In this document: in pieces, positions 3,933 to 55,435 of the stretch
Position numbering within the stretch: the first letter of the stretch is position 1
How the letters are laid out: each line of letters begins with the position of its first letter
Origin: a virus
Lineage: Duplodnaviria; Caudoviricetes
Virus record (IMG/VR): IMGVR_UViG_3300028914_000003
Coordinates: 68,636 to 132,635 of that record
Direction: 5' to 3' (one strand)
DNA: 64,000 bases
Translations under genes and position numbers: made by a program
Notes under the pieces: model-generated
What the model saw: only the letters and a program-made list of their open reading frames with translations
The model's database searches: none
Told to the model about the DNA's origin: nothing

Positions 3933-5129
3933 CTACCATTCTTCCATGTCTACATGCCCGGAAGACCGCTGACCGCACGTGTCGACCACCTTCTGAGCTG
4001 CCATCTCGTCAATGAAGTTACGCAGAGAGACCAGGGCATGACCGCGGTAGTCGCTGATGGTTACGCCCTCAATACGTCCTGCACGAACATCTGCGTAATA
4101 CTGGCGAAGCTCCAGTGCCTTGTCACGCAGCCGTGTGTACTTCGCGGCAGGTATCTGCTTGATAAGTCTGTTGGCATCCGTCACGTTCAGTCCCAGTGAT
4201 ACGATGCCGGAACGCAAGTCCGTAGCGTCCTGGCTCTCCAGTTGTGCGCGCTTGATGTTTCTACCCAAGTCCGTTAAGTGTATATGGAACACTATATTCT
4301 CCGGCGTACCGCGCTTCTTGCCTGCAGGATACTCGAACTCATAGTCGAAGGTGCAGTCGATGCGGTCGGCTGCTTCGGCAATCTCCTTGCGGGCTGGCTC
4401 CAGCACACGCTTCTTGAAATCGTTGATATCCTTATATTTATCTACCGTCACCTTCTGTGTCGTCTCGTCATAGGACGTGAGTAGTATCTTTCTCAGTTTC
4501 TCGTATGAAATAACCCACCTCTCAAGCTGCTTGTTCGCGTTGATAAGCAGGTATATACGACCGGCGTAGTTGCTCGAAAACAGGAAGATGGCGTCCTTCA
4601 GGTAGCGGTGGTATGGTGTGATATGGAACAAATCCTTTGCCGTCGATTCCGTCATGTGCAGGTAGATGTTCTGCCGGCGCTTTCCGGGAATATCCTTGTC
4701 GATGTCGATAACAGGAAATGCCACGGTATAACGCATCTTCCCGTCCACCTCCTTCTCATACACGATACGCTGCATCGCCTTTGCCGCCACGTCGACATCG
4801 CTGTAGTGTGTGGGTTCCACACCCAGTTCCGAGTAAGCCACCTTGAAGGTAAGATACTTTGAGCGGTCGTCCTGCGAGATAGGCTTATAGTCTTCTGACT
4901 CGAACAGGTCGCCGGTAAATCCGACCTTCGCCTTTCTGTCCAGTGCGCGCCTGATTTTGTCCTGCAGCTTCTCCATGATGGTCGTCTGTATGCGTGTCTG
5001 CATCATCGACATCTCGCCGTTCAGGTACGTGATTGTGATAGGCTGCATAATCATCTTACGCTGCTCTACGGGGACGCTGCTGATAATCTCCTGCTTCAGC
5101 TGCTCTGCTTTGCGTGATTTTCGTGCCAT
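3933..5129 (-). CDS. plasmid-type replication initiator (Rep_3/RepB-like winged helix)
   Basis: SSNYAGRIYLL and YKDINDFKKRVLEPARKEI motifs; lies next to an iteron array. Confidence 0.85.
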   Translation of the reverse strand: MARKSRKAEQLKQEIISSVPVEQRKMIMQPITITYLNGEMSMMQTRIQTTIMEKLQDKIRRALDRKAKVGFTGDLFESEDYKPISQDDRSKYLTFKVAYSELGVEPTHYSDVDVAAKAMQRIVYEKEVDGKMRYTVAFPVIDIDKDIPGKRRQNIYLHMTESTAKDLFHITPYHRYLKDAIFLFSSNYAGRIYLLINANKQLERWVISYEKLRKILLTSYDETTQKVTVDKYKDINDFKKRVLEPARKEIAEAADRIDCTFDYEFEYPAGKKRGTPENIVFHIHLTDLGRNIKRAQLESQDATDLRSGIVSLGLNVTDANRLIKQIPAAKYTRLRDKALELRQYYADVRAGRIEGVTISDYRGHALVSLRNFIDEMAAQKVVDTCGQRSSGHVDMEEW

Positions 5130-14869: not shown

Positions 14870-16803
14870 GCAGGATAGGCACGAACCCCAACGTGAGCAG
14901 CGACCATCTGGAGGCGAAGATGCTTCCGGATGTCGATGGCATGAACCCTGAAGAGGGTGGGGCGGTGGACTACGCCCACGACGGCGTGCATAAGGTCTAC
15001 CTGAACCGCTGGCAGAAGGAGGTGCGTAACTTCGGTTCGCGCACGACGTTCGTCCGTGCCGGTCGTGGTACGGGTAAGACGTCGTTCATCGGCGTTCACA
15101 TGGTGGACGTGACTATCGGTCTGCCGCGTCAGATGGGCGGATTCGTCGGTGCCAGTGCCAAGCAACTCTACACCCGCACGATGCCCAACGCCCTGAAGGT
15201 GGTGAACACGCTCGGTTTCGAGCAGTTCTACTTCCTCGGTCAGGCGCCCGCCAAACTGCACTGGGACTATCCGCTGGCCCGTCCGCGCAACTGGGAGAAC
15301 ATCGTCCACTTCAGCAACGGCTTTTGCTGGCAAATGCTGTCGATGTGTATCCGAGGATCCGGAAATGGGTTAAATTTGGCTGCGCTCATCGGTGACGAGA
15401 CGAAGTACCTTCCATGGCAGCGTGTCAAGGAAGAGATACTGCCTACGCTGCGTGGTGACTTCATGCCGCCGTCGGCGCGTAAGGTGGAGCAGAAACGGTG
15501 GGGCTACGGCACAGACCCGAAGATCAACAACCACTGGCTCTCGCAGTTGTGGGTGAGCGATGCCGGACTGACACAGGCGCAGACGCTCTGGGAGAAGGAG
15601 AAGGACTTTGAGACCCACGAGATCAACGACCAGCTGACCACCATGATGGCGGAACTGAAGTATCTGGAGAAGCACAATCCGCAGGCTGCGGTCGCCCTGT
15701 CGCAGAACGATAATTTCCTCAGGCAGCTGCACCGTCTCAGAACGGAGAGTATCTGCTACTGGAACCTCTCCAGTGCCGAGAACCTGTCGATGCTCGGTGA
15801 GTCATGGCTGCGCGACATGCAGCGCCAGATGCCGCCGCTGTTGTTCGGACTGATGGTCTTGGGCGTAGAGAAGGGGGCTGCCAAGGACGGATTCTACTGC
15901 AACCTCGATATTGAGACCATTCATGGTTATCTCGAAGAGGAGTACAGCACGGAGTACGGCGACAGCTACTCGATGCTGGCCGACAAGTATATGATTAAGA
16001 AGAAGGGTAAGGCGCTGGACTCTACCCGCTGGTTGCAGGAGGTTGAGACGGAACAGCTGGACCTCGATACCCTTGGCCGTCTCGGCGAGGAGGATACCTG
16101 CGAGCTGGATATGGATCTCGACTGGCAGAGTCCGCTGCTGATTGCCTTTGATGCCAATGCCAACCTGTCGTGCTTCGTCGTCGGACAGCTGCGTGGCGAC
16201 GAGCTGCTGGTGCAGCGCTCCATGTTTGTGATGAACGAGCGGAAACTCAGGGCTCTATGTCACGATTTTGCCCGTACCTACAAGCCCTTCCTGCGTCGTG
16301 GCTGCAAGGAGGTCATCCTGTATTTCACGGCGACGGTGAAGCAGGGCGCCAGTACCGCCTACGCCGTGGAGAACGGCGACGACAACCGCTTCGACAAGGT
16401 GGTGGTGCAGGAACTGACCGACCTCGGTTTTAAGGTTACGGCCATCGACACCGGCGCGGCACTCGCCCATGCCGTGAAGTTCCAGCTGATGGCAGACCTG
16501 ATGTCGGGTGCCCAGAATCCGAAAATCAGGATTTGTAAGTCTCCTGGACGCAATACCTACCTCATACCCGCCCTCGAAAATACTGGACTCAAGCCCGGCA
16601 GTTTCTCCAAGGACAAGAGCCGTGAGAAGTTGAAGGCTACCGATGAAGAGAGCCTTGGCGGCGACCCCCGTACCCGCACGGATATCACCGACGCTTTCGA
16701 CGACCTGGTGATAGGCGTGAAGTATCATGGGCTTAATCCACGTCCGAAGATCGGCGGAGGACTACGCAACAGGTTCCAGCATCTGGCAGGGATTCCGCAT
16801 TAA
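14866..16803 (+). CDS. terL: terminase large subunit
   Basis: Walker A AGRGTGKT, Walker B LIGDE, nuclease motifs AFDAN and DITDAFD. Confidence 0.9.
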   Translation: MSRIGTNPNVSSDHLEAKMLPDVDGMNPEEGGAVDYAHDGVHKVYLNRWQKEVRNFGSRTTFVRAGRGTGKTSFIGVHMVDVTIGLPRQMGGFVGASAKQLYTRTMPNALKVVNTLGFEQFYFLGQAPAKLHWDYPLARPRNWENIVHFSNGFCWQMLSMCIRGSGNGLNLAALIGDETKYLPWQRVKEEILPTLRGDFMPPSARKVEQKRWGYGTDPKINNHWLSQLWVSDAGLTQAQTLWEKEKDFETHEINDQLTTMMAELKYLEKHNPQAAVALSQNDNFLRQLHRLRTESICYWNLSSAENLSMLGESWLRDMQRQMPPLLFGLMVLGVEKGAAKDGFYCNLDIETIHGYLEEEYSTEYGDSYSMLADKYMIKKKGKALDSTRWLQEVETEQLDLDTLGRLGEEDTCELDMDLDWQSPLLIAFDANANLSCFVVGQLRGDELLVQRSMFVMNERKLRALCHDFARTYKPFLRRGCKEVILYFTATVKQGASTAYAVENGDDNRFDKVVVQELTDLGFKVTAIDTGAALAHAVKFQLMADLMSGAQNPKIRICKSPGRNTYLIPALENTGLKPGSFSKDKSREKLKATDEESLGGDPRTRTDITDAFDDLVIGVKYHGLNPRPKIGGGLRNRFQHLAGIPH

Positions 16804-16843
16804 AAGTACACCAAAAAAGAACCGTCCCTTTTTTGTATTTATT

Positions 16844-17036
16844 AAAAAGCGAGGGACAAGTCTTTCGACCTGCCCCTCTATTGAAGTCGGCGTGACAGCT
16901 ATTTACCTATTCGTCCCGATTCTGTCCGGTATTTATTTTTTCGTCGGTTGTGCAGACCCTTGCTTCCCTGTCCGACTGGGAGCACCCACATTTAAGGGCT
17001 TTCGGGAACACTATCACTCTGTGTTGTGCCTTATTT
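16844..17036 (-). ncRNA. candidate ~190-nt sRNA
   Basis: Consensus promoter TTTG-N20-TATCTTTG (17043-17074, minus strand) and a GAAA-loop terminator at 16851-16878; no convincing ORF. Confidence 0.5.
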
Positions 17037-17133
17037 ACGCTGCAAAGATAAGCATTATTTCCGAAGCCGCCAAATAATTCGTAAGAAATTTGTGGTCATT
17101 TGTGGAAATTCGTGTTTTATCCACGGTGTCCTC

Positions 17134-17169
17134 TGCCCTTGATTTCTGATTTCTTTCTCACTATCTTGC
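17134..17169 (+). promoter_or_regulatory. phage late-type promoter motif
   Basis: TGCCCTTG-N20-TATCTTGC upstream of the portal gene. Confidence 0.75.
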
Positions 17170-17193
17170 AGGCAGAAATAAATATCTATAGTT

Positions 17194-19014
17194 ATGAAGA
17201 AAGGCAAATCTTCCATCCCTACGCATACCGTCCACAATAGGAGCGAGTTCTCAAAAATAAACCGCAAGCTAAACAGCCGTGGGTATGTCGCCATTGACGC
17301 CTTGAAGCCGGGGCTGGTCAGGACGCTCACCTTGGGCGACGGTGCCGACAAGGGTGCTAAGCAGATGGCCGCTGGCATGGGCTGCGGGTCGTGGTCGAAC
17401 GGTCCGCTCTCGAAAGTGGCATGGTCGTTCGACTCGCGTGACAATGCCGTGCATGCCGTGAAAGATAAGGACGGCAAGCCGATGGGTTTGGGCTACGTTG
17501 ACTGGGGGCCTGGCAACTCGACGCCGAGTGTCATCCCGCCGCTGGCATGGTCGCTGCCCTATACCGCGTCGCCGCTGAGATATCTGGCTGACCTGACGGC
17601 AGGACTGGGGCCGAAGCTGATGTACGCCTTCGACGACGACACGATGTGCGAGTACAAGAAGGCGGGCTACCGCATCCTGGAGCGCATCGAGAAGCTGAAG
17701 AAAGGAGAAGAGGGAGATACCTATGGCGGAGACCTGGCGAAGGATCCTGTCAGCGGTACCATCATTCCCATTAGCGAATTAGAAAAGGATAAGCGTCCAG
17801 ACCCGATACTCCGCGGTCTTGGCATCGACTACTGGAAGGATGCCTACCGCGAGTGGGAGCGGACATGGCTGGGTTACGACGAAGAGGTGCAGATGACGGA
17901 CACCGTCACCGATACCGAGCACGTCCCCGGCGCCAAGGAGTTCTTAGAGAACAACAACCTGAACCTGCACCTGTCGCAGTGCGAGCAGGACGACGTGATG
18001 CTCGACATCTACTTCCCCACCGTCGGTTTCCATACCACCGGCTACAAGCGCAGCTGGAGGCCAGTCATCAACCGTGTCGGTTTTTTGCCTGCCCATTCGA
18101 TGAGACTCGAAAAGATGGACTCCAATAGGTACATCCATCACTGTTATCTATCTGACCAATGGCGTACGCTCGGCATCGGCACCCGCACCGTGACCGACCC
18201 GGAGAGCATGAAGATACAGATGTACCCCGCTGCCATGCCGCAGGACATGCTGCACGAGCTGCGCTATATCGTGGAGTCAAACCAGAAGAAAGGACCCAAG
18301 AGCCGTCCGTTGTGGATTGTCTGCCCGACGTTCTACCCCAGCGGACAGAAGCCGTACTACCCGCAGCCGGCATGGTGGAGCGTATTCTCGAGCAAGGCCT
18401 TCGACTTTGCCAGCACCATCCTGTATGACAAGTACAAGCAGCGTGAGAACAACACCACGTGGGGGCGTATCATCTATATCTCCTTGGACTACCTGAACAT
18501 GGTTTTCGCAGACCTTGGCATCGAGGGCGACATGGGGGCGCAGCAGAAGTACATCGACGAGCTGGATAACAACGTGGATCAGTTCCTGCAGCAGCGCGAG
18601 AACACGGGCAAGACCATGCGCCAGTTCATGTGGGACGGCCCCGACGGCAAGATGCACAAGAACGTCGAGATTGTAGATATCAAGGAAACCACCAACGACG
18701 CCGTGAAGGCAGGCAAGGAGGAGCTGGAGCTCTCCACGTCGCCTATTTTCCTGGCACTCGGTGTTGACCCACGCTTGGTCGGTGTGCCGATGGTGCAGGC
18801 CTCGAACGGCGGTACGGCGCTCCGTGAGATGCACCTTCTGAAACAGCAGCAGCTGAACGTCAAACAGCGGCTGTATTTACATTTTTTGAACTCGGTTGCG
18901 AAGTTCAACGGGTGGGACGAGCATGCACAGTTTGAGATTATCCAGCAGACGCTGACCACGCTGGACAACAGCAAGACCGGAACAGTAGAAACTGTGGCAG
19001 GCGAGGGTGCTTAG
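17194..19014 (+). CDS. portal protein
   Basis: Follows terL; YYPQPAW, LGVDPRLVG and GGTALRE motifs as in Bacteroidetes phage portals. Confidence 0.8.
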   Translation: MKKGKSSIPTHTVHNRSEFSKINRKLNSRGYVAIDALKPGLVRTLTLGDGADKGAKQMAAGMGCGSWSNGPLSKVAWSFDSRDNAVHAVKDKDGKPMGLGYVDWGPGNSTPSVIPPLAWSLPYTASPLRYLADLTAGLGPKLMYAFDDDTMCEYKKAGYRILERIEKLKKGEEGDTYGGDLAKDPVSGTIIPISELEKDKRPDPILRGLGIDYWKDAYREWERTWLGYDEEVQMTDTVTDTEHVPGAKEFLENNNLNLHLSQCEQDDVMLDIYFPTVGFHTTGYKRSWRPVINRVGFLPAHSMRLEKMDSNRYIHHCYLSDQWRTLGIGTRTVTDPESMKIQMYPAAMPQDMLHELRYIVESNQKKGPKSRPLWIVCPTFYPSGQKPYYPQPAWWSVFSSKAFDFASTILYDKYKQRENNTTWGRIIYISLDYLNMVFADLGIEGDMGAQQKYIDELDNNVDQFLQQRENTGKTMRQFMWDGPDGKMHKNVEIVDIKETTNDAVKAGKEELELSTSPIFLALGVDPRLVGVPMVQASNGGTALREMHLLKQQQLNVKQRLYLHFLNSVAKFNGWDEHAQFEIIQQTLTTLDNSKTGTVETVAGEGA

Positions 19015-19074
19015 ACTATTTTATAAGTCATCGAAATGATTTGACAGAATCACTTTTCAAGACCTGTATACAGT

Positions 19075-19110
19075 CGCCCTTGACAGTTGGAGCGAAACTT
19101 TTTATATTGC
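19075..19110 (+). promoter_or_regulatory. phage late-type promoter motif
   Basis: CGCCCTTG-N20-TATATTGC; terminator hairpin at 19160-19187 just downstream. Confidence 0.6.
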
Positions 19111-19213
19111 GACCAATAAAACTTTTTATGCTATTCAACAAATTATTTACGGTTATGGTGTACGGGAAGCCGTGAGGTTTCCCGTACTTCTTCTTCTTTG
19201 ATACCATCTTATG

Positions 19214-19249
19214 TGCCCTTGACCGTGCATCCTACGCACCATATCTTGC
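19214..19249 (+). promoter_or_regulatory. phage late-type promoter motif
   Basis: TGCCCTTG-N20-TATCTTGC. Confidence 0.75.
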
Positions 19250-19261
19250 AGCAAAAACGGC

Positions 19262-19747
19262 ATGGAACAGATGTTTGTCAGAAGACGCACAAGGGTATCA
19301 TATCCTCTCAGGATCGAGGGCGTGCAGAAGGCTCCTGTGACTGCGGAACCTGACGACGCGGAGCTGGCGGCTCAGGCGCTATTAGAGAGTATCGCAAAAC
19401 TCTCCAAAAAAACAGATGTAAATAATACGGCTGAGCCTAAGAAAGGCACATCCGAATATTATCTCAGACTGGCAGGCAGGATACACTCTGCCCACAATTC
19501 TGAGCGTCTCAGGGCAATGCGACTTGTGGCATTTGTCGAGCAGGAGTTGCAACACACCGACCTTCCTGTCAGCGGAGAAGGATCTCTTGGAATCTTGAAC
19601 GCTGAGCTACTGAAACACATTGACGCTATTAACAGAGATGGCGGAGAGCTGAAGCGCCGGTGGCAGCACTGCCTGGCCGAGGTCACCGTCATGATGATGA
19701 AAGGCGGTCCGGCTATATCGGACGATACCACAGATCCAACACAATAA
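19262..19747 (+). CDS. hypothetical protein
   Basis: Has its own promoter motif and a downstream hairpin (19771-19803). Confidence 0.7.
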   Translation: MEQMFVRRRTRVSYPLRIEGVQKAPVTAEPDDAELAAQALLESIAKLSKKTDVNNTAEPKKGTSEYYLRLAGRIHSAHNSERLRAMRLVAFVEQELQHTDLPVSGEGSLGILNAELLKHIDAINRDGGELKRRWQHCLAEVTVMMMKGGPAISDDTTDPTQ

Positions 19748-19808
19748 CTTCATAGAATAAATCATACTTCAGAGGGCAGGTGGTCGTGAGGCCGTCTGCC
19801 CTTTCCTC

Positions 19809-19844
19809 TGCCCTTGATTTTCTGTGAAAATCACTTTATCTTGC
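19809..19844 (+). promoter_or_regulatory. phage late-type promoter motif
   Basis: TGCCCTTG-N20-TATCTTGC at the head of the ACP-TMP-glycosyltransferase operon. Confidence 0.75.
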
Positions 19845-19862
19845 AGACAAAAACATAGTATT

Positions 19863-20126
19863 ATGTACAGGAAAGAGATTATAGACACCGTGAACGCCAT
19901 CATCGGCGAGAAGGCAGACATTGCAGCCGAATACATCGAACCGGATGATTGTTATGACGAAATCGGTTTGAGCCTTGACCAACTCATAGAGTTATCGGTG
20001 AAGATGGAGGACGAGTTCGTCATCGACATCACGGGAACCGATATCCTGCACTTCAATACCATGCAGGACATATACGACATCGTCGAGAAGAAAATTGTAG
20101 ACACCCACGGATTCCAGGTGTATTAA
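19863..20126 (+). CDS. acyl carrier protein-like protein with a non-canonical attachment site
   Basis: Acidic 87-aa protein; EIGLSLDQLIELSVKMEDEFVIDI..NTMQDIYDIV aligns with ACP helices II-IV. Confidence 0.75.
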   Translation: MYRKEIIDTVNAIIGEKADIAAEYIEPDDCYDEIGLSLDQLIELSVKMEDEFVIDITGTDILHFNTMQDIYDIVEKKIVDTHGFQVY

Positions 20127-20147
20127 CGAACCAAGGACTGAACAGCT

Positions 20148-20708
20148 ATGGCATTATTTTCAGAAGCGGAACGCAGTTGGGCAACCGACAAGTACGGTGA
20201 CAAGGTGAAGCGGTGGGACTGGGACTGGCGCGATGAGCGCATCATGGACTGGATCCACAACTTCGAGCGCATCAGCCGCGAGAACACCGAGGAGAACGTG
20301 GAGCGTCTGAATGCCGTGCGCACCGGTGCCATGAAGCGGTCGCTCTGGTGGAAGACGTGGGCGACGAGCGGCGGCGACACACAGGTGTTCGCGGCGCGCT
20401 ATCTCTACTACTCGAAGTTTGTGGAGTTGGCCGTCGGCAAGAACGAGCCCTACGACAGTCCGGTGCCCAAGATTCCGCATCCCTACTGGGAGCCTATTGC
20501 CGTGCCCACCCGTAGTCGCAGGGGTAAGCCCTTCGTCGTGACCGAGATGCGCACGCAGGCCGCCAAGTTCGCTGCTGTGGCCCGCAAGGAGTTCAGCTTC
20601 GCAGGAACCATGTTCCTCGTCTTCGCCATGGGCAGCAACCAGGATGCCCACCAGGCCGTGAACCGCGCCCTCTTCTGGCGACAGCGTCATGACAGAATCT
20701 GGAGATAA
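20148..20708 (+). CDS. putative neck/tail-completion protein
   Basis: TGAMKRSL and YSKFVELAVG resemble HK97 gp10-like proteins; directly upstream of the TMP. Confidence 0.45.
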   Translation: MALFSEAERSWATDKYGDKVKRWDWDWRDERIMDWIHNFERISRENTEENVERLNAVRTGAMKRSLWWKTWATSGGDTQVFAARYLYYSKFVELAVGKNEPYDSPVPKIPHPYWEPIAVPTRSRRGKPFVVTEMRTQAAKFAAVARKEFSFAGTMFLVFAMGSNQDAHQAVNRALFWRQRHDRIWR

Positions 20709-20757
20709 CCAACAACAAACACGAAAACGAACACGAACACAAAAACGAATACAAGAT

Positions 20758-23700
20758 ATGGCAACACGTCACGAACTTATCCACATCGACTTTGTGGCCA
20801 ACGCCGGCAAGGCGAACCCGGTATTGCAATCGCTGAAGGATTCCTGCGAGGAAGCCCGTATAGCAAAGGAAAAACTCGACAATGAGCTGACCAGCGCCAA
20901 GGCTGCCAATGCGCCCAAGGATGTCATAGAGAAAATCAACAAAGACCTGATAGAGCAGACCAAGATTTACCAGGCTCTGCAAAAGGGAGTACGCGAATAT
21001 GCCAAGGGCATCGACACGCTGTCGAAGGGTATTAAGGAGTACAACGAAGGTACGCTCGACCAGATGTCGCCGAAGTTCAATAAGGCTTTGGCTAATTCGG
21101 CCAAACTGGCACAGAGCAACTTCAAGAGCAACACTAAGGAATGGAGCGACCTGCAGACAGTCATAGAGGCCGCCCAGCGCAACGTTACCCGTGCCCGTGA
21201 GGACATTGACGGCCTGATGCAGTCGATGAAGACAGGAGCGTCGGTCAGCGCCAACCAGCTCACCACCGCCCGCGACGTGCTGAAGGATCTTGCCGACCTG
21301 GCCGTCGTAGGCAGCGAGGACTGGCGCGGACTGCAGAAGCAGATGAACGAGGTGGCGCAGGCCGCCGTGACCGTTGCCGAGACCGAGCGCCGCCTGAAGG
21401 GCGAGATAGTGGACGAGCAGGATGCCATCCGACTGTCGAACACACTCACTAAGGAGGCCATTGCCCAGCGTCATGCCATGGGCGAGGCGTTCGTGCAGGC
21501 TGCACAGAAGGAGCGCAGCGGCATCGAGGAAAGTATGAAGGGTGTCAGCCAGAAGATGGTACTGGAACGTCAGGAGCGCGAGGAACTGAAAGACACCATA
21601 GAACTGCAGGAGAACTACGACAAGCTCATAGAGAAGCGCGACAAGAAGATTGCCGACGCAGAAGGGAGGAAGCAGGAGGCCGAGAAGCGCAAGGCAGAGG
21701 CACAGGCCACTATCAACGCCTATGACGAGCAGGAGAAGAAAATCCAGAAGCTGAAGGCTGAGAAGAAGGATCTGGAAGAACAGCAGAAAAAGGAGACGCA
21801 AGCCGCCGAGAAAGCCGCCAAGTCCACCAAAGACCAGGGCGATGTCACCGAAGGCTTAACAAAGAAGGTGAGCACCCTTAAAGGAGAAATCGGTGGACTG
21901 GATACAGAACTGAAAGAACTGGATGCACAAATCGAGAACCTTAACAAAACACAAGGTTTAAGAAACGAGAATCCTATAATCGAGGGTGTAAAAGAAGGCG
22001 CAAAAGACGCACAACAGGAAATTCTGAAGCTCGCTCAGTTACAGGAAGAACTAAAGCAAGCCACGGCAGGGTACAAAAGAGATGCCAGCCAGCTTGACCT
22101 TATGGAAATACTGAATCGTTCGGCGCAAACAAGGTTTGGGAAAGAACAAGGTACATCTACAACATGGCATGGGCGTTTTGAAAACGACGCTTCTTTGAAA
22201 GACACTGTTAATGGACTTGCTAAGACAATGTCGAAAGACAATGCTTATTGGATTTCAACTGCCAAAGAACAAATCAAAAACAGAGTCGGATCTTTCCTGA
22301 ATGAAGACAAGTCGCTTGCAGATCTAAAAGCATTCCGTGAAGAGTGGTCAAAGGTTGTTCAGAGTCTTTATGATGAAGGGAAAGGTAGTGGCAACCACAT
22401 GGAAGCTATTCGCTATATCGACAATCTTATTGAAAAAACCGAGCAACTCAAGAATATTCAAGAGAAACGCGCCGCTGTTCAGAAGCAGCAGGCTGTTGTC
22501 GATGGATTAAAAAAAGAATCAGCTGCAATAGAAGAGACCACCGCTGCCAAGAAAGAGGAGGTTAAGACAGAGGGAGCTGTCATAAAGACCACTGAGACCG
22601 AGACAGTTACAGTCGAATCTCTCATGAAAGCAAATGACAAGCTGAAGGAGAGGTTGGCTGTCCTATATGAAGAAGAGAGAAAACTTTCCGAAGCAAAAGA
22701 GCATGGAACCGAAGCCGTCAAGGAGGAAACTAATGCCATCAAGGAGGAAGCGAACGCCTTTAAGGAACTGTCTAAAGAACAGGCGCAGGCAATGCTTGAC
22801 GCGAAGCAGAAGCTGGCGACATTCAGCACTGCCAACGGCAAGACAACCACCACAAACCTCGAAGAGGCACAGTCGTTCATCTTCGAGGCAGCTAAGAAGA
22901 TTAGCCCGAGTGGCACCAAGGGCGGCAATGTAACGCTTGAAGGTGAAAAGCAGATAGTCGACCTGGTCAGCCAGTTCCAGAGCCACTATGGCCTGCAGAG
23001 TGCCGACGAAGCACAGGGTATTATCAAGAGCGTACTCGGCGACGGCGGGCTTATTAAGAAGGGCTTCATGAACAAGTTCATTCTTAACATCGAGCAGGAT
23101 ACGCCAAAGGTTGCTGCGTATAACAAGGAAATTAAAGACTTGACTACAGTCATCAGCGGTGAGGTTGAGACCATTAAAGAGGAAAGCAGGGCTGTAGAGG
23201 AAAATGCCGAAAAGAAGCGTACGCTCGAACAGGTACAAGCGGAGATTAAGCAAATAGAAGATGAATCAAGAGCCATCTCCAAACAGACATACATTCTTCA
23301 AGGTCAGGCAAGAGAAGCCACCGAAGCCGATACGCAGAGCCTTGAAGAAAATACTGAGGCAAAGAGGAAGAACATAGAAGTAACCAAGGCTGCAATCCTT
23401 GCCGCTAAAGACATGACGGCTGAGGAGGCAAAACTGGTTAAAGATGATTTGACGGCTATCTCAACCGTCGGATGGAAGGCCGGCAAGGTTGACATGTCGA
23501 ATCCGGATGAAGTACAGAATTTCCTTATCGCCGCAATGGGCGGAAAGAAGTTGATTGGCGAAGACGGAACGCTTTCTGTAAAAGGCAGTAAAGTTGAATC
23601 CATCTTGGGTGAGTTCCAGAAAAGATATGGCTTTGAAGGCGATAGACAAACGGCCAAGGAAATTCTCAAAGAGATTGTAAATGGTAGGGACGGAGGCCTG

Positions 23701-32660: not shown

Positions 32661-32695
32661 GAAGAATGAAGAATAAAGAATGAAGAATAGAGAAT
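32661..32695. repeat. heptamer repeat (GAAGAAT)x5, degenerate
   Basis: Spans the start codon of the Stealth/GT gene. Confidence 0.8.
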
Positions 32696-35109
32696 CTTTC
32701 CCCATTGACCTGGTGATTCCCATGGTATTCCCGCAGGACCCTGAGTGGCAGCGGGAATACCTGAAGCATAAGGGAGGTGATGCCGCTGGGCACGTAAGAT
32801 ATCGCAGCTGGGGCACCGAGGAGCTGCAGATACGGTGTGTGATGAAGTTTATGCCGTGGCTCAGACGCATCCATATCCTGCTGGCGCAGGAGAGCCAGGT
32901 GCAGGAGTGGATGACGGCGTTATCACGGTATAACGGCATAACGGAATTACGAATTGTCTTTCACAAAGACATCATTCCGAAGGAATACCTGCCGTGTTTC
33001 GCCTCTCCGTGCTTCGAGATGTTCCTGCATAGGATACCTGGGCTCTCCGAGCAGTTCATCTATGCCAACGACGACATGTTCCCGCTGAGTCCGCTGGAGC
33101 CGGAGGACTTTTTCAGGGACGGACTGCCTTGCCAGCATATTACGGACAGGGCGTATCCGCCGGCACCGAACCTGTTCCAGCGCAAGTGCATGTGGCAGCA
33201 GAACATGATAGCGAAGCCGTTCGGCAGGCACTTCACGAAGACATATCCCGATACGGGGCATATCTTCTCCGCCATCCTGAAGAGCTCGTGTGAGGAGGTG
33301 TGGCGGCGTCACGGCGAGGAGATCACCAGGAACCTGAGTCCGCTGGCACGTACCGACCACTCTGCCAACAACTGGATATACCTGCTGTACCAGCAGTACA
33401 GCGGGCGGTATATAGACCACAGGCCGACGCGGCACTATACCGACCAGGACACGTCGACGGAGAAGTTGGCGGAGATTATCCGTGACCCCGACGCCGGCAT
33501 TGTCTGCATCAACGACAACGAGGCGCTCCGCGACTGGAAGCAGCGTGCCGCCGTTGTCAGGCGCGAGATAGAGGCAAAGCTGTGTATGCTCGCAGCAGGG
33601 GCGGTGAAGACACGCCGCATGAAGATTGCGCTCGTCGCCATCGGCCGCCTGGAGAACCGCTATGCCCGTGAGTTCGTGAACCACTATCTCCTGCTGGGCT
33701 TCGACCATGTCTTCATCTGTGACAACAACCATGACGGTGAGGAACGCTTCGAGGACATCCTCGCCGACAGGATCGCCGAGGGTACCGTCTCCGTCCATGA
33801 CTACCGTGACCGCGAGGCGGTGCAGGCCACGGCCTATAACGAGATGTACCGGCAGTACGGCTCCGGGTACGACTGGCTTGCCTTCTTCGATTTCGACGAG
33901 CTGCTGGTGATGAGCGGCGCCATGAGCGTCAGGGGATGGCTCGCCTCGCAGCCCTCCGATGCCGAGGTGGCACTGGTGAACTGGATGTGCATGACCGACT
34001 CCGGCCTGCAGTATGACGACGGCCGTCCGTCGATGGAGCGTTTCACTGTCGCCATGCCCTGCAACAGAGCCGTTCAGCGTGCCCGTCCCGAGAACGACCA
34101 TGTCAAGAGCTTCGTCCGCGGCGGACTCGGGGAGGTATGCTTCGTGAACCCCCATGTCCCCGTGACGCCGCATGACCAGAAGCCGTCTCCGTTCCGTCCC
34201 TATGACTATTCGGCCTGCTACCTGAAGCATTTCGTCACCAGGACTGCCGGTGAGTGGCTGTCATGCAAGTGCCGGCGTGGTGTCGGCGACCGCAGCAAGG
34301 AGAGCTTCGACCGCAAGTACCATGACCGTTTCTTCAAATATAACGACATGACGCCCGGGAAGCAGCGCTTCATGGAGGAGTGGCAGCGCAACAGCGCCGC
34401 CGCACTAACGGCGGCCATCGTACACTATAACACACCGAAGCTCACGCGTGCCGCCGTCCTGTCGCTCTGGAAGCATACGCCGGGCTGCAGGGTGGTCGTC
34501 TTCGAGAACAGCGACCGCCTGCCCATCAGCGGATGCACACAGTGGGACGCGCTCAGGTGGAATCCGCTGGTCACCGTCATAGACAACACAAGAGGACAGA
34601 TTATCGACTTCGACAAGATGCTGGAGCAGTATCCTGACCGTGAGTTCTTCGACCGTAACATGAGCAACTTCGGCAGTGCCAAGCACACCGCTTCCGTGGA
34701 CTGGCTCTTCGGCTTCCTGCCTGACGGCTTCCTGCTGCTGGACTCCGATATCCTCGTACGGCAGGATGTGGCGCCTCTTGCGGACAGGAACGTTGCCGCC
34801 GCCGGTGAGCTGAAGCCCAACGCGGGCGTCATGCGCCTGCTGCCGCTGCTGTGCTGGCTGAACGTGCCGGTGCTCCGCGAACACGGCATCCGCTATTTCA
34901 ACGGCGAGAAGATGTGGGCGCTCTCCGGCCGCAAGCCTGACAACCGCTATGACACCGGGGCGTGGCTGCTGGAGGAGGTCAGACGATACGGCCTGCCGCT
35001 CAGGGAGGTCAGTACCAGGGACTATGTCCTGCACCTGGGCCATGCCTCGTGGAAGGGTAACCGCAGCCCGATGGGGTGGGTGAGGGAACACCGGGACTTG
35101 TGGGAGTGA
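32680..35109 (+). CDS. tri-domain glycosylation enzyme: Stealth sugar-1-phosphate transferase, GT-A domain (GT2_4/GT92-like) and GT2-like domain
   Basis: Stealth motifs PIDLV, MPWLRRIHI, HRIPGLSEQFIYANDD and CIND; ENRYAREFVNHY..GFDHVFICDN..FFDFDE; IVHYNTP..LLDSD. Confidence 0.85.
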   Translation: MKNRESFPIDLVIPMVFPQDPEWQREYLKHKGGDAAGHVRYRSWGTEELQIRCVMKFMPWLRRIHILLAQESQVQEWMTALSRYNGITELRIVFHKDIIPKEYLPCFASPCFEMFLHRIPGLSEQFIYANDDMFPLSPLEPEDFFRDGLPCQHITDRAYPPAPNLFQRKCMWQQNMIAKPFGRHFTKTYPDTGHIFSAILKSSCEEVWRRHGEEITRNLSPLARTDHSANNWIYLLYQQYSGRYIDHRPTRHYTDQDTSTEKLAEIIRDPDAGIVCINDNEALRDWKQRAAVVRREIEAKLCMLAAGAVKTRRMKIALVAIGRLENRYAREFVNHYLLLGFDHVFICDNNHDGEERFEDILADRIAEGTVSVHDYRDREAVQATAYNEMYRQYGSGYDWLAFFDFDELLVMSGAMSVRGWLASQPSDAEVALVNWMCMTDSGLQYDDGRPSMERFTVAMPCNRAVQRARPENDHVKSFVRGGLGEVCFVNPHVPVTPHDQKPSPFRPYDYSACYLKHFVTRTAGEWLSCKCRRGVGDRSKESFDRKYHDRFFKYNDMTPGKQRFMEEWQRNSAAALTAAIVHYNTPKLTRAAVLSLWKHTPGCRVVVFENSDRLPISGCTQWDALRWNPLVTVIDNTRGQIIDFDKMLEQYPDREFFDRNMSNFGSAKHTASVDWLFGFLPDGFLLLDSDILVRQDVAPLADRNVAAAGELKPNAGVMRLLPLLCWLNVPVLREHGIRYFNGEKMWALSGRKPDNRYDTGAWLLEEVRRYGLPLREVSTRDYVLHLGHASWKGNRSPMGWVREHRDLWE

Positions 35110-35640: not shown

Positions 35641-35733
35641 ATATATCTTAAATGTATCGTTCCTAAAATAAAGTGACCGCCACACTATTCCACTCGGTAT
35701 CTCTGCAGCGCCCCCTCTCGGGATTACTCGGGA

Positions 35734-35917
35734 TTAGAGCCCGAGTAACCTTTTTTCGAGAGTTTTCAGAAGTCCTGTCGGAACTTCCTGGGAACCGTGG
35801 CGCGGAACGTATCCGTATAAGCCCGTAATCGGACTATACCACTTGTCGTGTTCGCCACCGTGCCTGACCAAGCGGCATCCCGCCGCTCTCAGGCGTGCTA
35901 CAAATTTACTCTGTTTC
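35734..35917 (-). pseudogene. hicA: HicA toxin whose start codon is split by an IS insertion
   Basis: Frame KQSKFVARLRAAGCRLVRHGGEHDKWYSP..VPRHGSQEVPTG; the AT of its ATG lies at 37814-37815, beyond the IS. Confidence 0.88.
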
Positions 35918-35934
35918 TTGACATACTCCCACGG

Positions 35935-37083
35935 CTAAAGCCGAGGGATTCTTAGGTGCTTACGCCCCCGCACAGTCACCTTTCCAGGCTCCTGCGTCTT
36001 ACCAGGACTCCCCAACGAGGCAATGCCCTGCCTCAGAATATTACAAGCAGCATGAAGGTCGCGGTCGTGATGACGGCCACACTCAGGACAAGTCCACTCC
36101 CTGTCATGCAACGCTAAATCTTTATACACATGACCACAGTCACACAGCTTAGAGGACGGGAAGAAGCGGTCAACCTTCTGCACCTTCACACCGTACTTGC
36201 CTGCAAGATACTCCAGCTTGCGGACAAACTTTCCATGGGCGAGGTCCTGCATCTTGCGTCCCCACAGCGAGGTCATTCCAGTGAGCTGCAAGTCTTCGAT
36301 GCAGATGGTGTCGAAGCGGCGGCACAGGTCGTGCGCCAGCTCCCACTGCCAGTTGTCGCGGCGGTTGGTGATGAGCTCCTCCACACGGTTCTTCGCCCGT
36401 CGGGCAGCCTTGCGGTGGTTGCTGCCCTCCTGCTTCTTAGAGAGGCGGCGGTCGGCGGTGCGCTTCATGCCGAGAGCCTGCTTCAGATAGCGCGGCGACT
36501 GGATGCGCTCACCCGTGGAGAGCGTCATGTAGGTCTTCAGGCCGAAGTCGATGCCTACGGATGCACCATTATGTGTCTTTCCGATAGGCTCTCCCTTGGT
36601 CTCGATGAAGAGGTACACGAAGTATTCCCCGACGGGAGTGCGCTTCACGGCCACGTTCTTGATTTTGCCTACGCCGACATACGGACGGCTCAGCGAGAAC
36701 TTGAAGCGTTTCTTGATTTTGTTGATGGTGAGCACGTTCCCGTTCAGCGAGAAGCCGCCCTGCTTGAACATGAAGCTGCGGAAGCCGTCAGCCCGCTTGA
36801 ACTTGGGAGGCCGGACCTGAATATGCTGGAAGAAACGCTGGTAGGACTTGTCCTGACGCTCCAGTATCTCCTGCACGGTCTGCGAATGAAGACGGCTGCT
36901 CTTGCCGTACCAGCGCACCCACTTTCCCTTTATGCGGTTCACGTCGATGTACTTTCTGTACATACGATAGTACCGCTTCTGCAGGGCCAGCGCATGGTTC
37001 CATACCCACGATGCCTCACAGAGCATCGCGTCAAGGTGCTTCGTCTGCTTGGTCGTATAGAGCTTATACTTGTAGGCTATCAT
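35935..37083 (-). CDS. tnpB: TnpB RNA-guided endonuclease
   Basis: RuvC residues appear intact (GIDFG, IEDL, DRDLHAACNI); zinc finger CDCG..CPECG. Confidence 0.95.
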   Translation of the reverse strand: MIAYKYKLYTTKQTKHLDAMLCEASWVWNHALALQKRYYRMYRKYIDVNRIKGKWVRWYGKSSRLHSQTVQEILERQDKSYQRFFQHIQVRPPKFKRADGFRSFMFKQGGFSLNGNVLTINKIKKRFKFSLSRPYVGVGKIKNVAVKRTPVGEYFVYLFIETKGEPIGKTHNGASVGIDFGLKTYMTLSTGERIQSPRYLKQALGMKRTADRRLSKKQEGSNHRKAARRAKNRVEELITNRRDNWQWELAHDLCRRFDTICIEDLQLTGMTSLWGRKMQDLAHGKFVRKLEYLAGKYGVKVQKVDRFFPSSKLCDCGHVYKDLALHDREWTCPECGRHHDRDLHAACNILRQGIASLGSPGKTQEPGKVTVRGRKHLRIPRL

Positions 37084-38028: not shown

Positions 38029-39288
38029 ATGTTCATAACAACAGAGAACGAGATCAACAGCCTGATGCCCACGGCACGTTGGGACAGGCCGGATCAGCTG
38101 AAGGGCTATCTCGAGGAAGAGGAACGCGTAGCGCTGGAACCCCTTCTCGGTACGACGCTGTACCAGCACCTGTGTAATGAGTACGAGCGCTTGCGTGACA
38201 CCTATGTCGATATCACGGCCACCACCATCAAGCCGACGAAGAAGGCCAAGGACGATCCCGGTGTCCCCTATGCCGACGTCACCGAGCGCCTGAATATGAT
38301 TCAGAAAGGAGGCCGTCATACCGTCCCCTGCCCACTGATTCCCGACGAGTATGTCGATGTGCCGGAGAAGGACATGCTCACGATACGCCTGCTGCGCATC
38401 TGCCAGCAGATAGAGTTCTACAAGATGCTGTCGCACAAGACGGGCTTGCTGACTGTCTCCTTCAACGAGGGCGGCGGCATGAACATGGTCTCTGCCGAAG
38501 GCTACGAGCCCGCCGACGAGAAGCGTATGGAGCGTGTCGTGAAGGATGCCTTCATGAGTGCCGGCCGCGCCGTCGACTCGCTGCTGCTGTTCCTCGAGGC
38601 CGACGCCAAGGGCGACAGGGTCTTCACCCAGATGTGGCAGGAGGCCGATGCCTTCTGGCTGCACAGAGACCTGCTGTTCCAGACGGCGCGCGTGCTTAAC
38701 GAGTACCTGGACATCCGTGGTGAGCGTGCCGCCTATGTGTCACTTGTCAGGGACATCCGCTTCTGTCAGAACACCTACCTGAAGCCGCGCATCGGCGCCC
38801 GTCTGCTGAAGTCCGTCGTGGAGTATGCCAACGGCCTCCTTACCCCCGACTCCAAGAAAGGCGATGACAGCGACTCCATGGGCAGCAGTTCCTCTGGCTC
38901 CTCCATCTCTTCCGGCCTGCCTGACGGCGAGACGATGGACGAGCTGCTGTCGATGCTCAGGACGGCGCTGGCCTTCTATGTCGAGAGCCGCCGTACTACG
39001 CTGGGACCGAAGGAGGAGAAGCTGGCGCGGCGCGACTCGATGACCGAAGCCCAGCAGGCGATGGCCATGGCCTGCCAGTTCGTCGAGGAGAACCTCGATC
39101 TGCTTGGCGATGCCGCCAAGGACTCCCCCATATACAAGAAGGTGAAGGAAGCAGAGGCGCAGGCCGCCAAGGACGCTGAGAATGCCGAGGCGGCACACCG
39201 CCGTCACTGCCGTCAGCAATGCGAGCAGTCACGGCGCAAGCTCTTCACAGCGTTCCCTGCCACGCACAGGACGCCGGAGAGGAAGTGA
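38029..39288 (+). CDS. putative head-tail adaptor (DUF6712-like)
   Basis: Duplicated motif LEPLLGTTLY / LKPRIGARLL; internal DDSDSMGSSSSGSS loop. Confidence 0.5.
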   Translation: MFITTENEINSLMPTARWDRPDQLKGYLEEEERVALEPLLGTTLYQHLCNEYERLRDTYVDITATTIKPTKKAKDDPGVPYADVTERLNMIQKGGRHTVPCPLIPDEYVDVPEKDMLTIRLLRICQQIEFYKMLSHKTGLLTVSFNEGGGMNMVSAEGYEPADEKRMERVVKDAFMSAGRAVDSLLLFLEADAKGDRVFTQMWQEADAFWLHRDLLFQTARVLNEYLDIRGERAAYVSLVRDIRFCQNTYLKPRIGARLLKSVVEYANGLLTPDSKKGDDSDSMGSSSSGSSISSGLPDGETMDELLSMLRTALAFYVESRRTTLGPKEEKLARRDSMTEAQQAMAMACQFVEENLDLLGDAAKDSPIYKKVKEAEAQAAKDAENAEAAHRRHCRQQCEQSRRKLFTAFPATHRTPERK

Positions 39289-41557: not shown

Positions 41558-41593
41558 TGCCCTTGATTTCGCAGGGAAATATTGCTAACTTAG
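41558..41593 (+). promoter_or_regulatory. phage late-type promoter motif
   Basis: TGCCCTTG-N20-TAACTTAG upstream of the capsid gene. Confidence 0.65.
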
Positions 41594-41637
41594 CATTATC
41601 GAAACATATTTATCAACCCACAAAAACAAAACAGATT

Positions 41638-42909
41638 ATGGCTTACGCATTAAGTATTGCTGAGATCCAGTCCGTTAAGGAACAGATCCATGAGGAACTG
41701 GTGGCCAAGGCCTACCTCCTCGACGACTCAATGTTTGGAGACCTCGGTTTCAAGGTGACTACCAATGTCGAGAACATCGACATCTGTCGTATCTTCAACC
41801 GCAAGGGTCTCGTAGCACGTCCCTACCGTGTAGGTAACGTGAAACCCTCACAGCTGGCTAAGATCCTTGACAACCCCGCCAAGGTCGAGCCTTACTACAT
41901 CAAGGCTGAGGACTCTATCGAGCGCTACCGCGAGAAGGGCCCGTACAACGTAGTCGACGGCTCCGGTGAGTCTGAGATGTCTCAGAAGAACATGCAGGAG
42001 ATTGCCGGCCGCGCCGCTGAGGACGTCCGCTTCAATGTATGGTTCGGCAACCCCGCCAACCGTTCGCTGGAGGATACCGCTGAGAACCAGGTGAAGCTCG
42101 GCCTGAGCCTGTTCAAGGGTATCTACACCATCATCGCCGAGAAGCGTACCGATGGTACCATCAGCGTTCAGAACCGCAACCTGATCATGACCGGCGACAT
42201 CACCGGCAAGACCGCCAAGCAGGTGTACGACATCCTGGTGGACTTCTACACCAAGCTGCACCCGGCACTGAAGAAGCCCGAGCAGACCACGTACATCTAC
42301 GCTGCCGACAACTTCTGCCGTCTGGCCATCAAGGGTTACATGGAGACCTTCCCGCAGATCTCTCCGCAGGTCACACAGGCCGGCTGGAAATTTGTCGAGA
42401 TGCCTAACATCATCCTGAAGACTTCTGCTGCCATGGGCGTCGGCGGCCAGCTCGTCGCCTCCGTCGACGGTAACCTGGAGTTCATCTGCGACACCCGCGA
42501 GGGAACAGCCCAGATCCGCATCGGCCAGACCAACGAGGACCTGACCATCATCGGCTACCAGATCAACGCCGCTGCTACCACGCGTATCCGCGACTACGAT
42601 CCTCAGGTATTCGCATGTAACGATGCCGTCAACACGTACGACTGGACTCCCGGCCAGTACATCGCCGACATCTTCACTGCCACCAGCGAGGACACCACTG
42701 AGGGCACCGTCTCTATCGTGAGCGGCCAGAAGGACCTCTATGCCGACGGCGACATCATCACCGTGAAGGCTGAGCCCAAGGACGGCTTCAAGTTCGTAGG
42801 CTGGAGCGACAAGAGCACTGCCAACCCCTACAACTACGAGTTCGGCGGCGGCGTTGTCAACCTCGTCGCACGCTTCGAGGAAGAGGATGACAGCTCTTCT
42901 GGCGAGTGA
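41638..42909 (+). CDS. major capsid protein with C-terminal InlB-B-repeat/Ig-like domain
   Basis: Follows the protease/scaffold; strong codon bias; C-terminal ITVKAEPKDGFKFVGWSD..LVARF. Confidence 0.8.
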   Translation: MAYALSIAEIQSVKEQIHEELVAKAYLLDDSMFGDLGFKVTTNVENIDICRIFNRKGLVARPYRVGNVKPSQLAKILDNPAKVEPYYIKAEDSIERYREKGPYNVVDGSGESEMSQKNMQEIAGRAAEDVRFNVWFGNPANRSLEDTAENQVKLGLSLFKGIYTIIAEKRTDGTISVQNRNLIMTGDITGKTAKQVYDILVDFYTKLHPALKKPEQTTYIYAADNFCRLAIKGYMETFPQISPQVTQAGWKFVEMPNIILKTSAAMGVGGQLVASVDGNLEFICDTREGTAQIRIGQTNEDLTIIGYQINAAATTRIRDYDPQVFACNDAVNTYDWTPGQYIADIFTATSEDTTEGTVSIVSGQKDLYADGDIITVKAEPKDGFKFVGWSDKSTANPYNYEFGGGVVNLVARFEEEDDSSSGE

Positions 42910-43017: not shown

Positions 43018-43587
43018 ATGTCAAATCTTTGCATTCCTAAGTCAGTTCTCTCCAGCGCCAGCTGTATTGAGAACCCCGCAGGCCTGAGCAACCATCTCTG
43101 GGCCGTTCACATCGACGATGTGAAAGTCACCGTCAGCGATGACAAGAACCAGTACGAGATTGAAGCAGCCGCCGGCGGAGCTGCGGCCATCCAGGGTATC
43201 CGTATCGACTTCAAGAGCCAGACCGGACAGTACACCTCTGAGGACAACGGCACCGGCAAGGGCTGGACAGGTACCGGCACCGGCCGCGTCGAGCTCAGTG
43301 AGGACGACATGGCATGGACATCGCGTGTCCTGCACAACTCGGACAAGTACCTGTACTTCATGCCTACCGGCAAGAAGGTGACCGTCAACAACGTCCAGGT
43401 TCCCGAGTACGTCGTTATCGGTAACGACAACGGCGAGGCCGAGTGGGCTGTCGCAGCCGACACGGGTGCTGCACGTAACGATGACCACGGTCAGACGTTC
43501 ACCATCACCTGCGCCTACCAGCTGTACCCGATCACCAAGTTCTACGGCACCATCCAGGAGAAGGCCGTGGACGATTCAAGCAACTAA
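43018..43587 (+). CDS. major tail tube protein (putative)
   Basis: 189-aa beta-rich protein (CIENPAGL, VVIG, DTGAA) after the capsid gene; followed by a terminator. Confidence 0.6.
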   Translation: MSNLCIPKSVLSSASCIENPAGLSNHLWAVHIDDVKVTVSDDKNQYEIEAAAGGAAAIQGIRIDFKSQTGQYTSEDNGTGKGWTGTGTGRVELSEDDMAWTSRVLHNSDKYLYFMPTGKKVTVNNVQVPEYVVIGNDNGEAEWAVAADTGAARNDDHGQTFTITCAYQLYPITKFYGTIQEKAVDDSSN

Positions 43588-54511: not shown

Positions 54512-55435
54512 TTAGATCGTGCTGTCCGAGCTGTCGCCGCCGAAGATCTCGTCGATGTCGCTGGTAGAACCGACCTTGACGGTCTTCTTGTGAGCGGAGA
54601 TCTCGCCGTTTGCGTTCTGGGTGATGTCGCTGATGAAGGTCAGCGAGTAGCCGCTGGCGGTAGGATCTTCGACAGCCGTCTGCTTGGTCTTGTACTCAGA
54701 GAGAGCGTGACCGGAGTCAACGGGGTTGCCGTTGGCGTCGAACTCGGCGATGTTACCCTCTACGGCGTCGGTGTCCTTGTCGGCCTTGGCGCCCAGGTTG
54801 TCGTTCAGGGCATCGAGCTTAGCCTTGTCCTCCTTGGCCAGCAGACCGTCCTGACCGGCGATGCTCTGCTCAGCATCGGGAGCGACAGCGTTCTGCACGG
54901 TCTTCTTGTGGACGGTGATCTCGCCGTTCTCGTTCTGCGTCACGCTGTCGACGAAGGTGATGCCTGTGCCGGCAGTCGTAGCGTCGCCGTCAGTGACAGC
55001 CGTCTGCTTCGTCTTGTAGTTCGACAGGTCGATGTCACCCTGGAACACGTCGTACTTGTATACGCCGGTCGATGGGTTGGCGACATACACGTTGGCTCCC
55101 TTGGGGATGTTGTGGCCGGCACCCTCCACGAAGTCACTCGTGGTAACGAAGGCATCCGAGATGTTCCACATGAAGCCGAGGCAGCCCTCTACGAGGTCTG
55201 TCGACGGATTCAGCTGTGAGAACGAGCGTGTGCCCTTGGGGATGATGGCAGAAGGAAGGCCCTGAATCTTGCTGAGCAGCTCAGCGAGGGCACCCTCTAC
55301 GGTCGTAGCCGTCAGGCCGCTGATGGCGGCGATGGCCTTGGTCTGATACTTCTGCGCCAGCTTACCTTCAAAATAGTTAAGCAAGCTGATGTCGACCAGA
55401 TTGGTCGGATTTGTAATAGCATTTGAATTTGCCAT
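54512..55435 (-). CDS. fibre protein with an internal repeat
   Basis: Two copies of YKTKQTAV..F..xxTQNxNGEIxxHKKTV; strong codon bias. Confidence 0.7.
   Translation of the reverse strand: MANSNAITNPTNLVDISLLNYFEGKLAQKYQTKAIAAISGLTATTVEGALAELLSKIQGLPSAIIPKGTRSFSQLNPSTDLVEGCLGFMWNISDAFVTTSDFVEGAGHNIPKGANVYVANPSTGVYKYDVFQGDIDLSNYKTKQTAVTDGDATTAGTGITFVDSVTQNENGEITVHKKTVQNAVAPDAEQSIAGQDGLLAKEDKAKLDALNDNLGAKADKDTDAVEGNIAEFDANGNPVDSGHALSEYKTKQTAVEDPTASGYSLTFISDITQNANGEISAHKKTVKVGSTSDIDEIFGGDSSDSTI

Follow-up and report, generated by a model that had tools for sequence, protein, structure and literature searches.

We analysed a 64,000-nucleotide (nt) stretch of DNA, hereafter the window, which forms the second half (positions 68636-132635) of a complete rumen phage genome of 132,635 bp with 127-bp direct terminal repeats. 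Among the late tail genes of this phage lies a single gene for an enzyme of 809 amino acids (aa) that joins a Stealth domain, predicted to transfer sugar-1-phosphate, to two further domains of glycosyltransferase type, and short serine-rich tags are present on the capsid, the tail tube and several other proteins (Table 1). Upon comparison of three phage lineages, we found strict co-variation between such tags and the Stealth gene. The original prediction, which was made from the letters of the window alone, had proposed that the enzyme glycosylates the virion on these tags. The co-variation, the soluble character of the enzyme and its place in the late tail operon support that reading, and we put the probability that the phage encodes a system modifying its own virion proteins with a glycan on serine tags at roughly three in four. 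The open reading frame (ORF) and all six Asp/Ser tag sequences named in the original prediction were recovered at the expected positions.

The N-terminal part of the enzyme belongs to the Stealth family. Stealth_CR2 (PF11380) matched residues 40-148 with 94.2 bits (Pfam gathering cut-off 39.4), residues 7-279 aligned with the whole catalytic domain of Mycobacterium tuberculosis CpsY (8j2n residues 1-279; E value 1.7e-19), and the catalytic domains of GNPTAB, the N-acetylglucosamine (GlcNAc)-1-phosphotransferase, matched the Stealth part with E values of 1e-15 to 4e-12. The activity of CpsY depends on E305, N322 and D324, and R419 is likewise essential, mutants being crippled (PMC10668966). As evident from the alignment, the first three residues correspond to E113, N130 and D132 of the phage enzyme, which are invariant in 15 phage homologues; the N130-D-D132 motif as a whole is invariant among homologues. 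The invariant R224 lies one or two positions off R419 in the pairwise alignment and is probably its counterpart. The middle domain matched Glyco_tranf_2_4 (PF13704; 49.1 bits, cut-off 27.5) and GT92 (PF01697; 29.8 bits, cut-off 23) over residues 328-420 and contains the sequence D404-F-D406-E, which is invariant in 10 homologues. The last 239 residues form a probable GT-A domain, so called because the motifs HYNTP..FDNSD and the invariant D688-S-D690 fit this type; in relatives, the domain gave marginal matches only, to GT8 (E value 0.013) and GT2 (E value 0.06). The original prediction of a Stealth domain followed by two GT-A domains, each with a DxD motif, thus held for the Stealth domain, the middle domain and the invariance of both DxD motifs, and less firmly for the nature of the third domain. 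The enzyme has no signal peptide or transmembrane segment, its highest 19-residue hydropathy being 1.35.

The ATG of the enzyme gene lies 21 nt past the stop codon (TAA) of the tape measure gene, as originally described, and no terminator-like hairpin was found between these two genes. The operon is bounded by terminator-like hairpins at 19160-19187 and 35724-35748. The label of the tape measure protein, likewise proposed earlier, was backed by three PHROG families. In 10 relatives, the enzyme gene is located directly 3' of the tape measure gene. Among relatives, the order of the genes for the tape measure, the enzyme, a 419-aa protein, an S49 prohead protease, the capsid and the tail tube is kept. 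In its sequence context, the enzyme gene is part of the late tail operon and stands outside a lysogenic-conversion context. We also observed that orthologues of the tape measure protein are about 2100 to 3800 aa long, compared with the 3989 aa of the window protein; if mostly helical, the latter implies a tail several hundred nanometres long.

The labels of capsid and tail tube given in the original prediction were upheld by fold searches. The capsid gave HK97-fold matches with Z-scores of 5-7.6 in a search with a low-confidence model, and its gene stands behind that of the S49 prohead protease. The top 50 fold matches of the tail tube were almost all tail-tube or Hcp folds, with Z-scores of 5-7.9. 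Searches of PHROGs and Pfam returned nothing for the tail tube, 419-aa, fibre, large tail-region and ParG-like proteins, and for the capsid they returned only Flg_new_2.

Table 1. The fusion enzyme, the tape measure protein and the serine-tagged proteins encoded in the window (window coordinates unless residues are given).
Feature	Position	Strand	Evidence or tag
Fusion enzyme, 809 aa, soluble	32680..35109	+	Pfam; sequence matches to CpsY and GNPTAB; invariant catalytic motifs; no transmembrane segment
Enzyme domain 1: Stealth sugar-1-phosphate transferase	residues 1-305		family assignment by sequence; activity predicted
Enzyme domain 2: GT92/GT2_4-type GT-A	residues about 306-570
Enzyme domain 3: probable GT-A	residues 571-809
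Major capsid protein: HK97-like core and C-terminal Flg_new_2 immunoglobulin-like domain	41563..42909	+	tag EEEDDSSSGE (42877-42906)
Tail tube protein	43018..43587	+	C-terminal tag VDDSSN
Conserved head-module protein, 419 aa (putative; the 'adaptor' of the original prediction)	38029..39288	+	Ser-run loop GDDSDSMGSSSSGSSISS (38860-38916)
Putative fibre protein, 307 aa	54512..55435	-	ends GGDSSDSTI (54515-54541)
Putative large tail-region protein, 1992 aa	57928..63906	-	poly-Ser linkers, residues 51-76 (63679-63756) and 695-707 (61786-61824)
'ParG-like' protein (putative), 129 aa	7548..7937	-	ends SSDNSSSSM
Tape measure protein, 3989 aa	20689..32658	+	PHROG phrog_167, phrog_28 and phrog_4211, best E value 3e-10; L006 orthologue carries PF10145

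Relatives of the window phage (lineage A) were gathered through the capsid protein from viral and metagenome collections. The state of the enzyme was scored by a search of the whole record or from the content of the slot that the tape measure and 419-aa genes enclose, the slot alone being used for metagenome loci, and a capsid was scored as tagged when at least three Ser were present within its last 10 residues. Among 37 non-redundant phages of known enzyme state, the capsid tag was found in 17/17 enzyme-bearing and 0/20 enzyme-free phages, and an 'SS' in the tail of the tail tube was found in 14/16 and 0/20, respectively. Two apparent exceptions proved to be enzyme-bearing, with the gene outside the fetched locus, and no enzyme match was obtained in the eight enzyme-free genomes that are rated complete. 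When a tree of the capsids was built with their tails removed, five switches of the enzyme state were seen on it, each accompanied by a switch of the tag (5/5 independent contrasts concordant). In particular, the capsid sister of the window phage, L013, is 84% identical, enzyme-free and untagged; upon comparison of the window capsid with its closest untagged relative, only the last ~10 residues were found to switch.

The same relation was observed beyond the capsid and the tail tube. Acidic C-terminal Ser tags numbered 17 in the 768 ORFs of five enzyme-bearing genomes (2-5 per genome), compared with none in the 707 ORFs of four enzyme-free genomes. A loose census that counted any polar run with at least three Ser failed to split the two groups of genomes; they were separated only when acidic tags at the C-terminus and long inserts of poly-Ser were counted. 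In the large tail-region protein, one homologous site has a poly-Ser insert of 10-25 residues in 5/5 enzyme-bearing genomes and no such insert in either of the comparable enzyme-free genomes, G008 and G022. The 419-aa protein has Ser runs in its loop in the window and in L006, L007, L010 and G017, all of which are enzyme-bearing, and in no enzyme-free relative; three enzyme-bearing relatives lack the loop. The sole partial homologue of the putative fibre protein in an enzyme-free genome (G004) ends with AEEEGE and contains no Ser there, and the orthologue of the ParG-like protein in enzyme-free G001, which is 72% identical, stops at ..GWKGRKQ without a Ser tail.

Enzyme-free capsids either end right after the conserved ..F-E or add a domain of ~45 aa on a flexible linker, and the presence of this extra domain there indicates that the capsid C-terminus is exposed. 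The domain (..TPTYTAV.NPSGNPA..GWYEKSGDVYSLTEDTEV.SGKTYYTKG) was observed in L013 (L013:10037-11455), L017, L018, L020-L022, L029 and L031, had no match in Pfam, and is attached at the exact position of the Ser tag by a linker of low complexity, which varies and is made up of PEPT, GS or acidic repeats. It looks like an alternative capsid decoration, and its occurrence at the same terminus suggests that the capsids of these phages may bear either of two interchangeable decorations.

A search with the Stealth domain revealed it in many other viral contigs. Two further lineages (B and C) carry the Stealth gene in a slot flanked by the tail-tube gene and the tail gene that follows it. The capsid proteins of lineages A, B and C have no BLAST similarity to one another; in lineages B and C, the ending ..SSSS[E/D/N] is found on the capsid and the tail tube and in some cases on one more protein. 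In lineage B, tags were present in 7/7 Stealth-bearing and 0/19 Stealth-free phages, with 3/3 contrasts concordant. The corresponding values in lineage C were 7/12 and 0/23, with about three contrasts concordant, none discordant and two ties. Taken together, about 11/11 phylogenetically independent contrasts that were informative are concordant (sign test, p about 0.001), and tags without Stealth were never seen in the three lineages. The original prediction had proposed a comparison of related genomes for co-occurrence of tags and enzyme, and in all three lineages the tags are present with Stealth and missing from relatives without it. SS occupies positions -3/-2 in 46 of 63 distinct tagged termini, and the last residue is E, D or N in 45. 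We also found that a downstream protein of ~180 aa in lineage C ends with ..QPSQTESSASGS in Stealth-bearing and Stealth-free relatives alike.

The composition of the enzyme differs between phages: the GT92-type, C-type and DUF4422 modules are fused, split or absent, and Stealth is constant. Phage G017, with a complete genome of 102 kb, encodes a 305-aa Stealth protein alone, and a search of its whole genome gave no match to GT2, GT2_4 or DUF4422; its capsid, its tail tube and other proteins are tagged. The Stealth gene of G017 overlaps the tape measure stop by 17 nt, and the tagged head and tube genes lie ~55 kb away on the opposite strand (C1:66753-76605, compared with 16299-21931). Locus L202 is likewise Stealth-only and has a strong capsid tag. 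Because these two Stealth-only phages still carry tags, Stealth is most likely the core enzyme and would act as the primer or as the sole step.

What follows is inferred, namely the attachment of a glycan, its linkage as Ser-O-phospho-sugar, the sequence in which the steps occur and the benefit to the phage. The enzyme would be made late, alongside the tail proteins, and would stay in the cytoplasm, where its targets would be short exposed Ser-rich tags, such as the C-termini of capsid and tail tube and, in other virion proteins, loops or linkers. The Stealth domain would move sugar-1-phosphate from a uridine diphosphate (UDP)-sugar to the tag, either placing it directly on Ser hydroxyls or building a short poly(sugar-phosphate) chain, and the two GT-A-type domains could then add more sugars. 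The assembled particle would thus bear an anionic glycan coat, which may provide shielding, adhesion or colloidal stability. In one form of this mechanism, Stealth puts sugar-1-phosphate directly on Ser of the capsid and tail, reads the terminal ..SS[E/D/N]-COOH and could extend a capsule-like poly(sugar-phosphate), so that several unrelated gut and rumen phage lineages would have an anionic coat. We regard this form as tentative, at somewhat less than even odds.

A number of observations weigh against virion self-glycosylation. The support for it rests wholly on sequence comparison, the glycan is predicted, and the characterised Stealth enzymes use sugar acceptors and not protein serine, as in the case of CpsY (PMC10668966). 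The enzyme-free status of some relatives was scored from incomplete contigs, the eight complete genomes nonetheless being enzyme-free. In lineage C, the capsid is untagged in five Stealth-bearing phages; one of these has Ser runs on other proteins, and the other four, the Stealth-only L188, L194, L198 and L204, have no clear poly-Ser anywhere in the locus. In these four, the Stealth gene occupies the usual slot behind the tail-tube gene, and neither capsid nor tube has a poly-Ser tag. More distant Stealth homologues (L219-L252; 28-37% identity) have no serine-tagged ORFs within 10 kb. These occur in viral contigs of 15-355 kb with a guanine-cytosine content of about 30-40%, some of them from jumbo phages, and the Stealth homologues in such low-GC contigs may serve another purpose. 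With regard to the window itself, residues 571-809 of the enzyme have no match in Pfam, and a profile of this domain found nothing significant among the sequences of the PDB, with one marginal nucleotidyltransferase match. The capsid model is of low confidence (predicted local distance difference test score, pLDDT, 53). Finally, the ParG-like protein may be non-structural, a caveat already raised in the original prediction, although its tail still tracks the enzyme.

Other explanations of the enzyme and the tags were weighed on the same evidence. The enzyme might alter a host surface polysaccharide (capsule, lipopolysaccharide (LPS) or exopolysaccharide) and so exclude superinfection or convert the serotype, in which case the tags would be unrelated low-complexity tails. 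Phage glycosyltransferases often convert host serotypes, and the plasmid-like Rep_3 initiator of the genome would make a carrier state possible; moreover, bacterial Stealth enzymes make capsule polymers, as CpsY does (PMC10668966). This explanation nevertheless leaves the tracking of tags and enzyme across about 11/11 contrasts and three unrelated capsid families unexplained. In addition, no promoter-like break separates the enzyme gene from the late tail operon, the enzyme is soluble, and its gene has neither a flippase nor any other membrane partner nearby. We consider an action on the host surface improbable. A purely genetic link, in which tags and enzyme belong to one recombining structural module without any enzyme-substrate relation, would be in line with the mosaic nature of phage genomes and with the location of the enzyme, capsid and tail-tube genes of lineage A within about 10 kb. 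We consider such a link highly improbable. The core of the window capsid is closest to that of an untagged, enzyme-free phage, and its last ~10 residues alone switch; tags on genes 20-25 kb away switch as well; the enzyme gene of G017 stands with the tape measure gene, about 55 kb off the tagged head genes; and the pairing arose in three unrelated capsid families.

An alternative that keeps the tags as acceptors concerns the priming step. Another enzyme, either of the host or a GT-A domain of the phage, would glycosylate the tags first, and Stealth would only add sugar-1-phosphate to the sugar already in place, in the way that GlcNAc-1-phosphotransferase modifies mannose. The acceptors of all characterised Stealth enzymes are sugars, the window enzyme joins Stealth to two GT-A-type domains, and a host enzyme could act as primer; in contrast, the Stealth-only G017 and L202 are tagged, G017 has no GT2, GT2_4 or DUF4422 gene, and the GT-A modules vary while Stealth is constant. 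On balance, we judge prior priming by another enzyme to be unlikely. Two further candidates were rejected. The motif of periplasmic O-glycosylation in Bacteroidetes is D-(S/T)-(A/I/L/V/M/T); the tags rarely fit this motif, and virions assemble in the cytoplasm, which spoke against host periplasmic O-glycosylation of the tags. DNA glycosylation was dropped because it is protein tags that the enzyme tracks and because a scan of large proteins brought up no gene of the hydroxymethylase type.

The host of the phage was considered from neighbouring genes. A TnpB-like gene at 35935-37083 on the minus strand sits between the enzyme gene and the 419-aa gene of the window, and relatives have no TnpB-like gene at this place. 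Its nearest relatives (57-62% identity) all occur in metagenome-assembled genomes of Bacteroidales (Prevotella, Paludibacteraceae and Porphyromonadaceae). For this reason, a host in Bacteroidetes, as assumed in the original prediction, is plausible, and it would probably belong to Bacteroidales. When the enzyme was searched against 50,697 phage records with tblastn, only 15 Prevotella Lak phages were matched, through the middle domain only, and no mycobacteriophage was found; at the DNA level, the head region had no match among deposited phages. Beside the ParG-like gene, we observed genes for a Rep_3-type initiator (Rep3_C) and for a protein with an RNase_T-type exonuclease domain (window 3933-5129 and 5880-7454, both on the minus strand), which suggests plasmid-like maintenance and a possible phage-plasmid lifestyle.

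If virion self-glycosylation is true, it would extend to abundant phages of the gut and rumen with Bacteroidales-type hosts, through a different enzyme family, probably with a different, phosphate-linked chemistry, and with repeated origin on unrelated capsid proteins. The signature of a Stealth gene together with ..SS[E/D/N] termini would then predict sugar-coated phages among uncultured genomes, the tags would offer short, portable elements for the glyco-engineering of phage particles, and a hypothesis would be available for how gut phages tune their surface charge, their adhesion to mucus or particles and their immune visibility. Should the direct transfer to Ser be true, protein phosphoglycosylation would be seen for the first time outside eukaryotes, and the Stealth family would gain a new class of acceptor.

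Our literature search found virion glycosylation reported for mycobacteriophages only and no report of Stealth enzymes acting on phage particles; the particle of the window phage would probably be coated with a phosphate-linked sugar, a chemistry not yet described for phages. In lysogenic conversion of the Gtr type, membrane-bound enzymes or a flippase are expressed from the prophage, apart from the late genes. In contrast, the window enzyme is soluble, and only 21 nt and no terminator separate its gene from that of the tape measure. With CpsY, Neisseria meningitidis CsaB and CsxA, and GNPTAB, the window Stealth shares conserved regions, catalytic residues and a catalytic domain of ~300 aa. 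The acceptors of those enzymes are sugars, either capsule polymers or the mannose of N-glycans, whereas the acceptor in the window would be a virion Ser tag, and the window Stealth differs further in that it is phage-encoded and fused to two more transferase-type domains. In the protein phosphoglycosylation of Dictyostelium and Leishmania, sugar-1-phosphate is placed on serine in Ser-rich regions. This chemistry is the one proposed for the window, although theirs is eukaryotic and takes place in the secretory pathway; to our knowledge, no viral or bacterial case of protein phosphoglycosylation is known.

In Gram-positive bacteria, the serine-rich repeat glycoproteins are likewise modified on Ser tracts by soluble transferases, in the cytoplasm and before final placement (PMC7948813, PMC6973325). 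They differ from the window system in their GtfA/B enzymes of the GT-B type, their long repeats, and their nature as secreted adhesins with an accessory Sec system; the window tags are short and are found on virion subunits. The closest known counterpart concerns the virion itself. Two reports on the mycobacteriophage Che8 and its relatives describe O-glycosylation of the virion by phage-encoded transferases, with a coat over the whole particle (PMC11256854, PMC12619734). The window system differs from the Che8 type in that its enzyme is centred on Stealth, its gene is part of the tail operon, its host comes from another phylum (being probably a member of Bacteroidales), and its glycan is predicted and not measured. 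Virion O-glycosylation of Che8 and its relatives was reportedly described by Freeman et al. in 2023 (Cell Host Microbe 31:1216). Virion glycosylation in mycobacteriophages alters antibody recognition. Like these phages, the window phage encodes its own transferases and bears Ser-containing C-terminal extensions on both its capsid and its tail tube.

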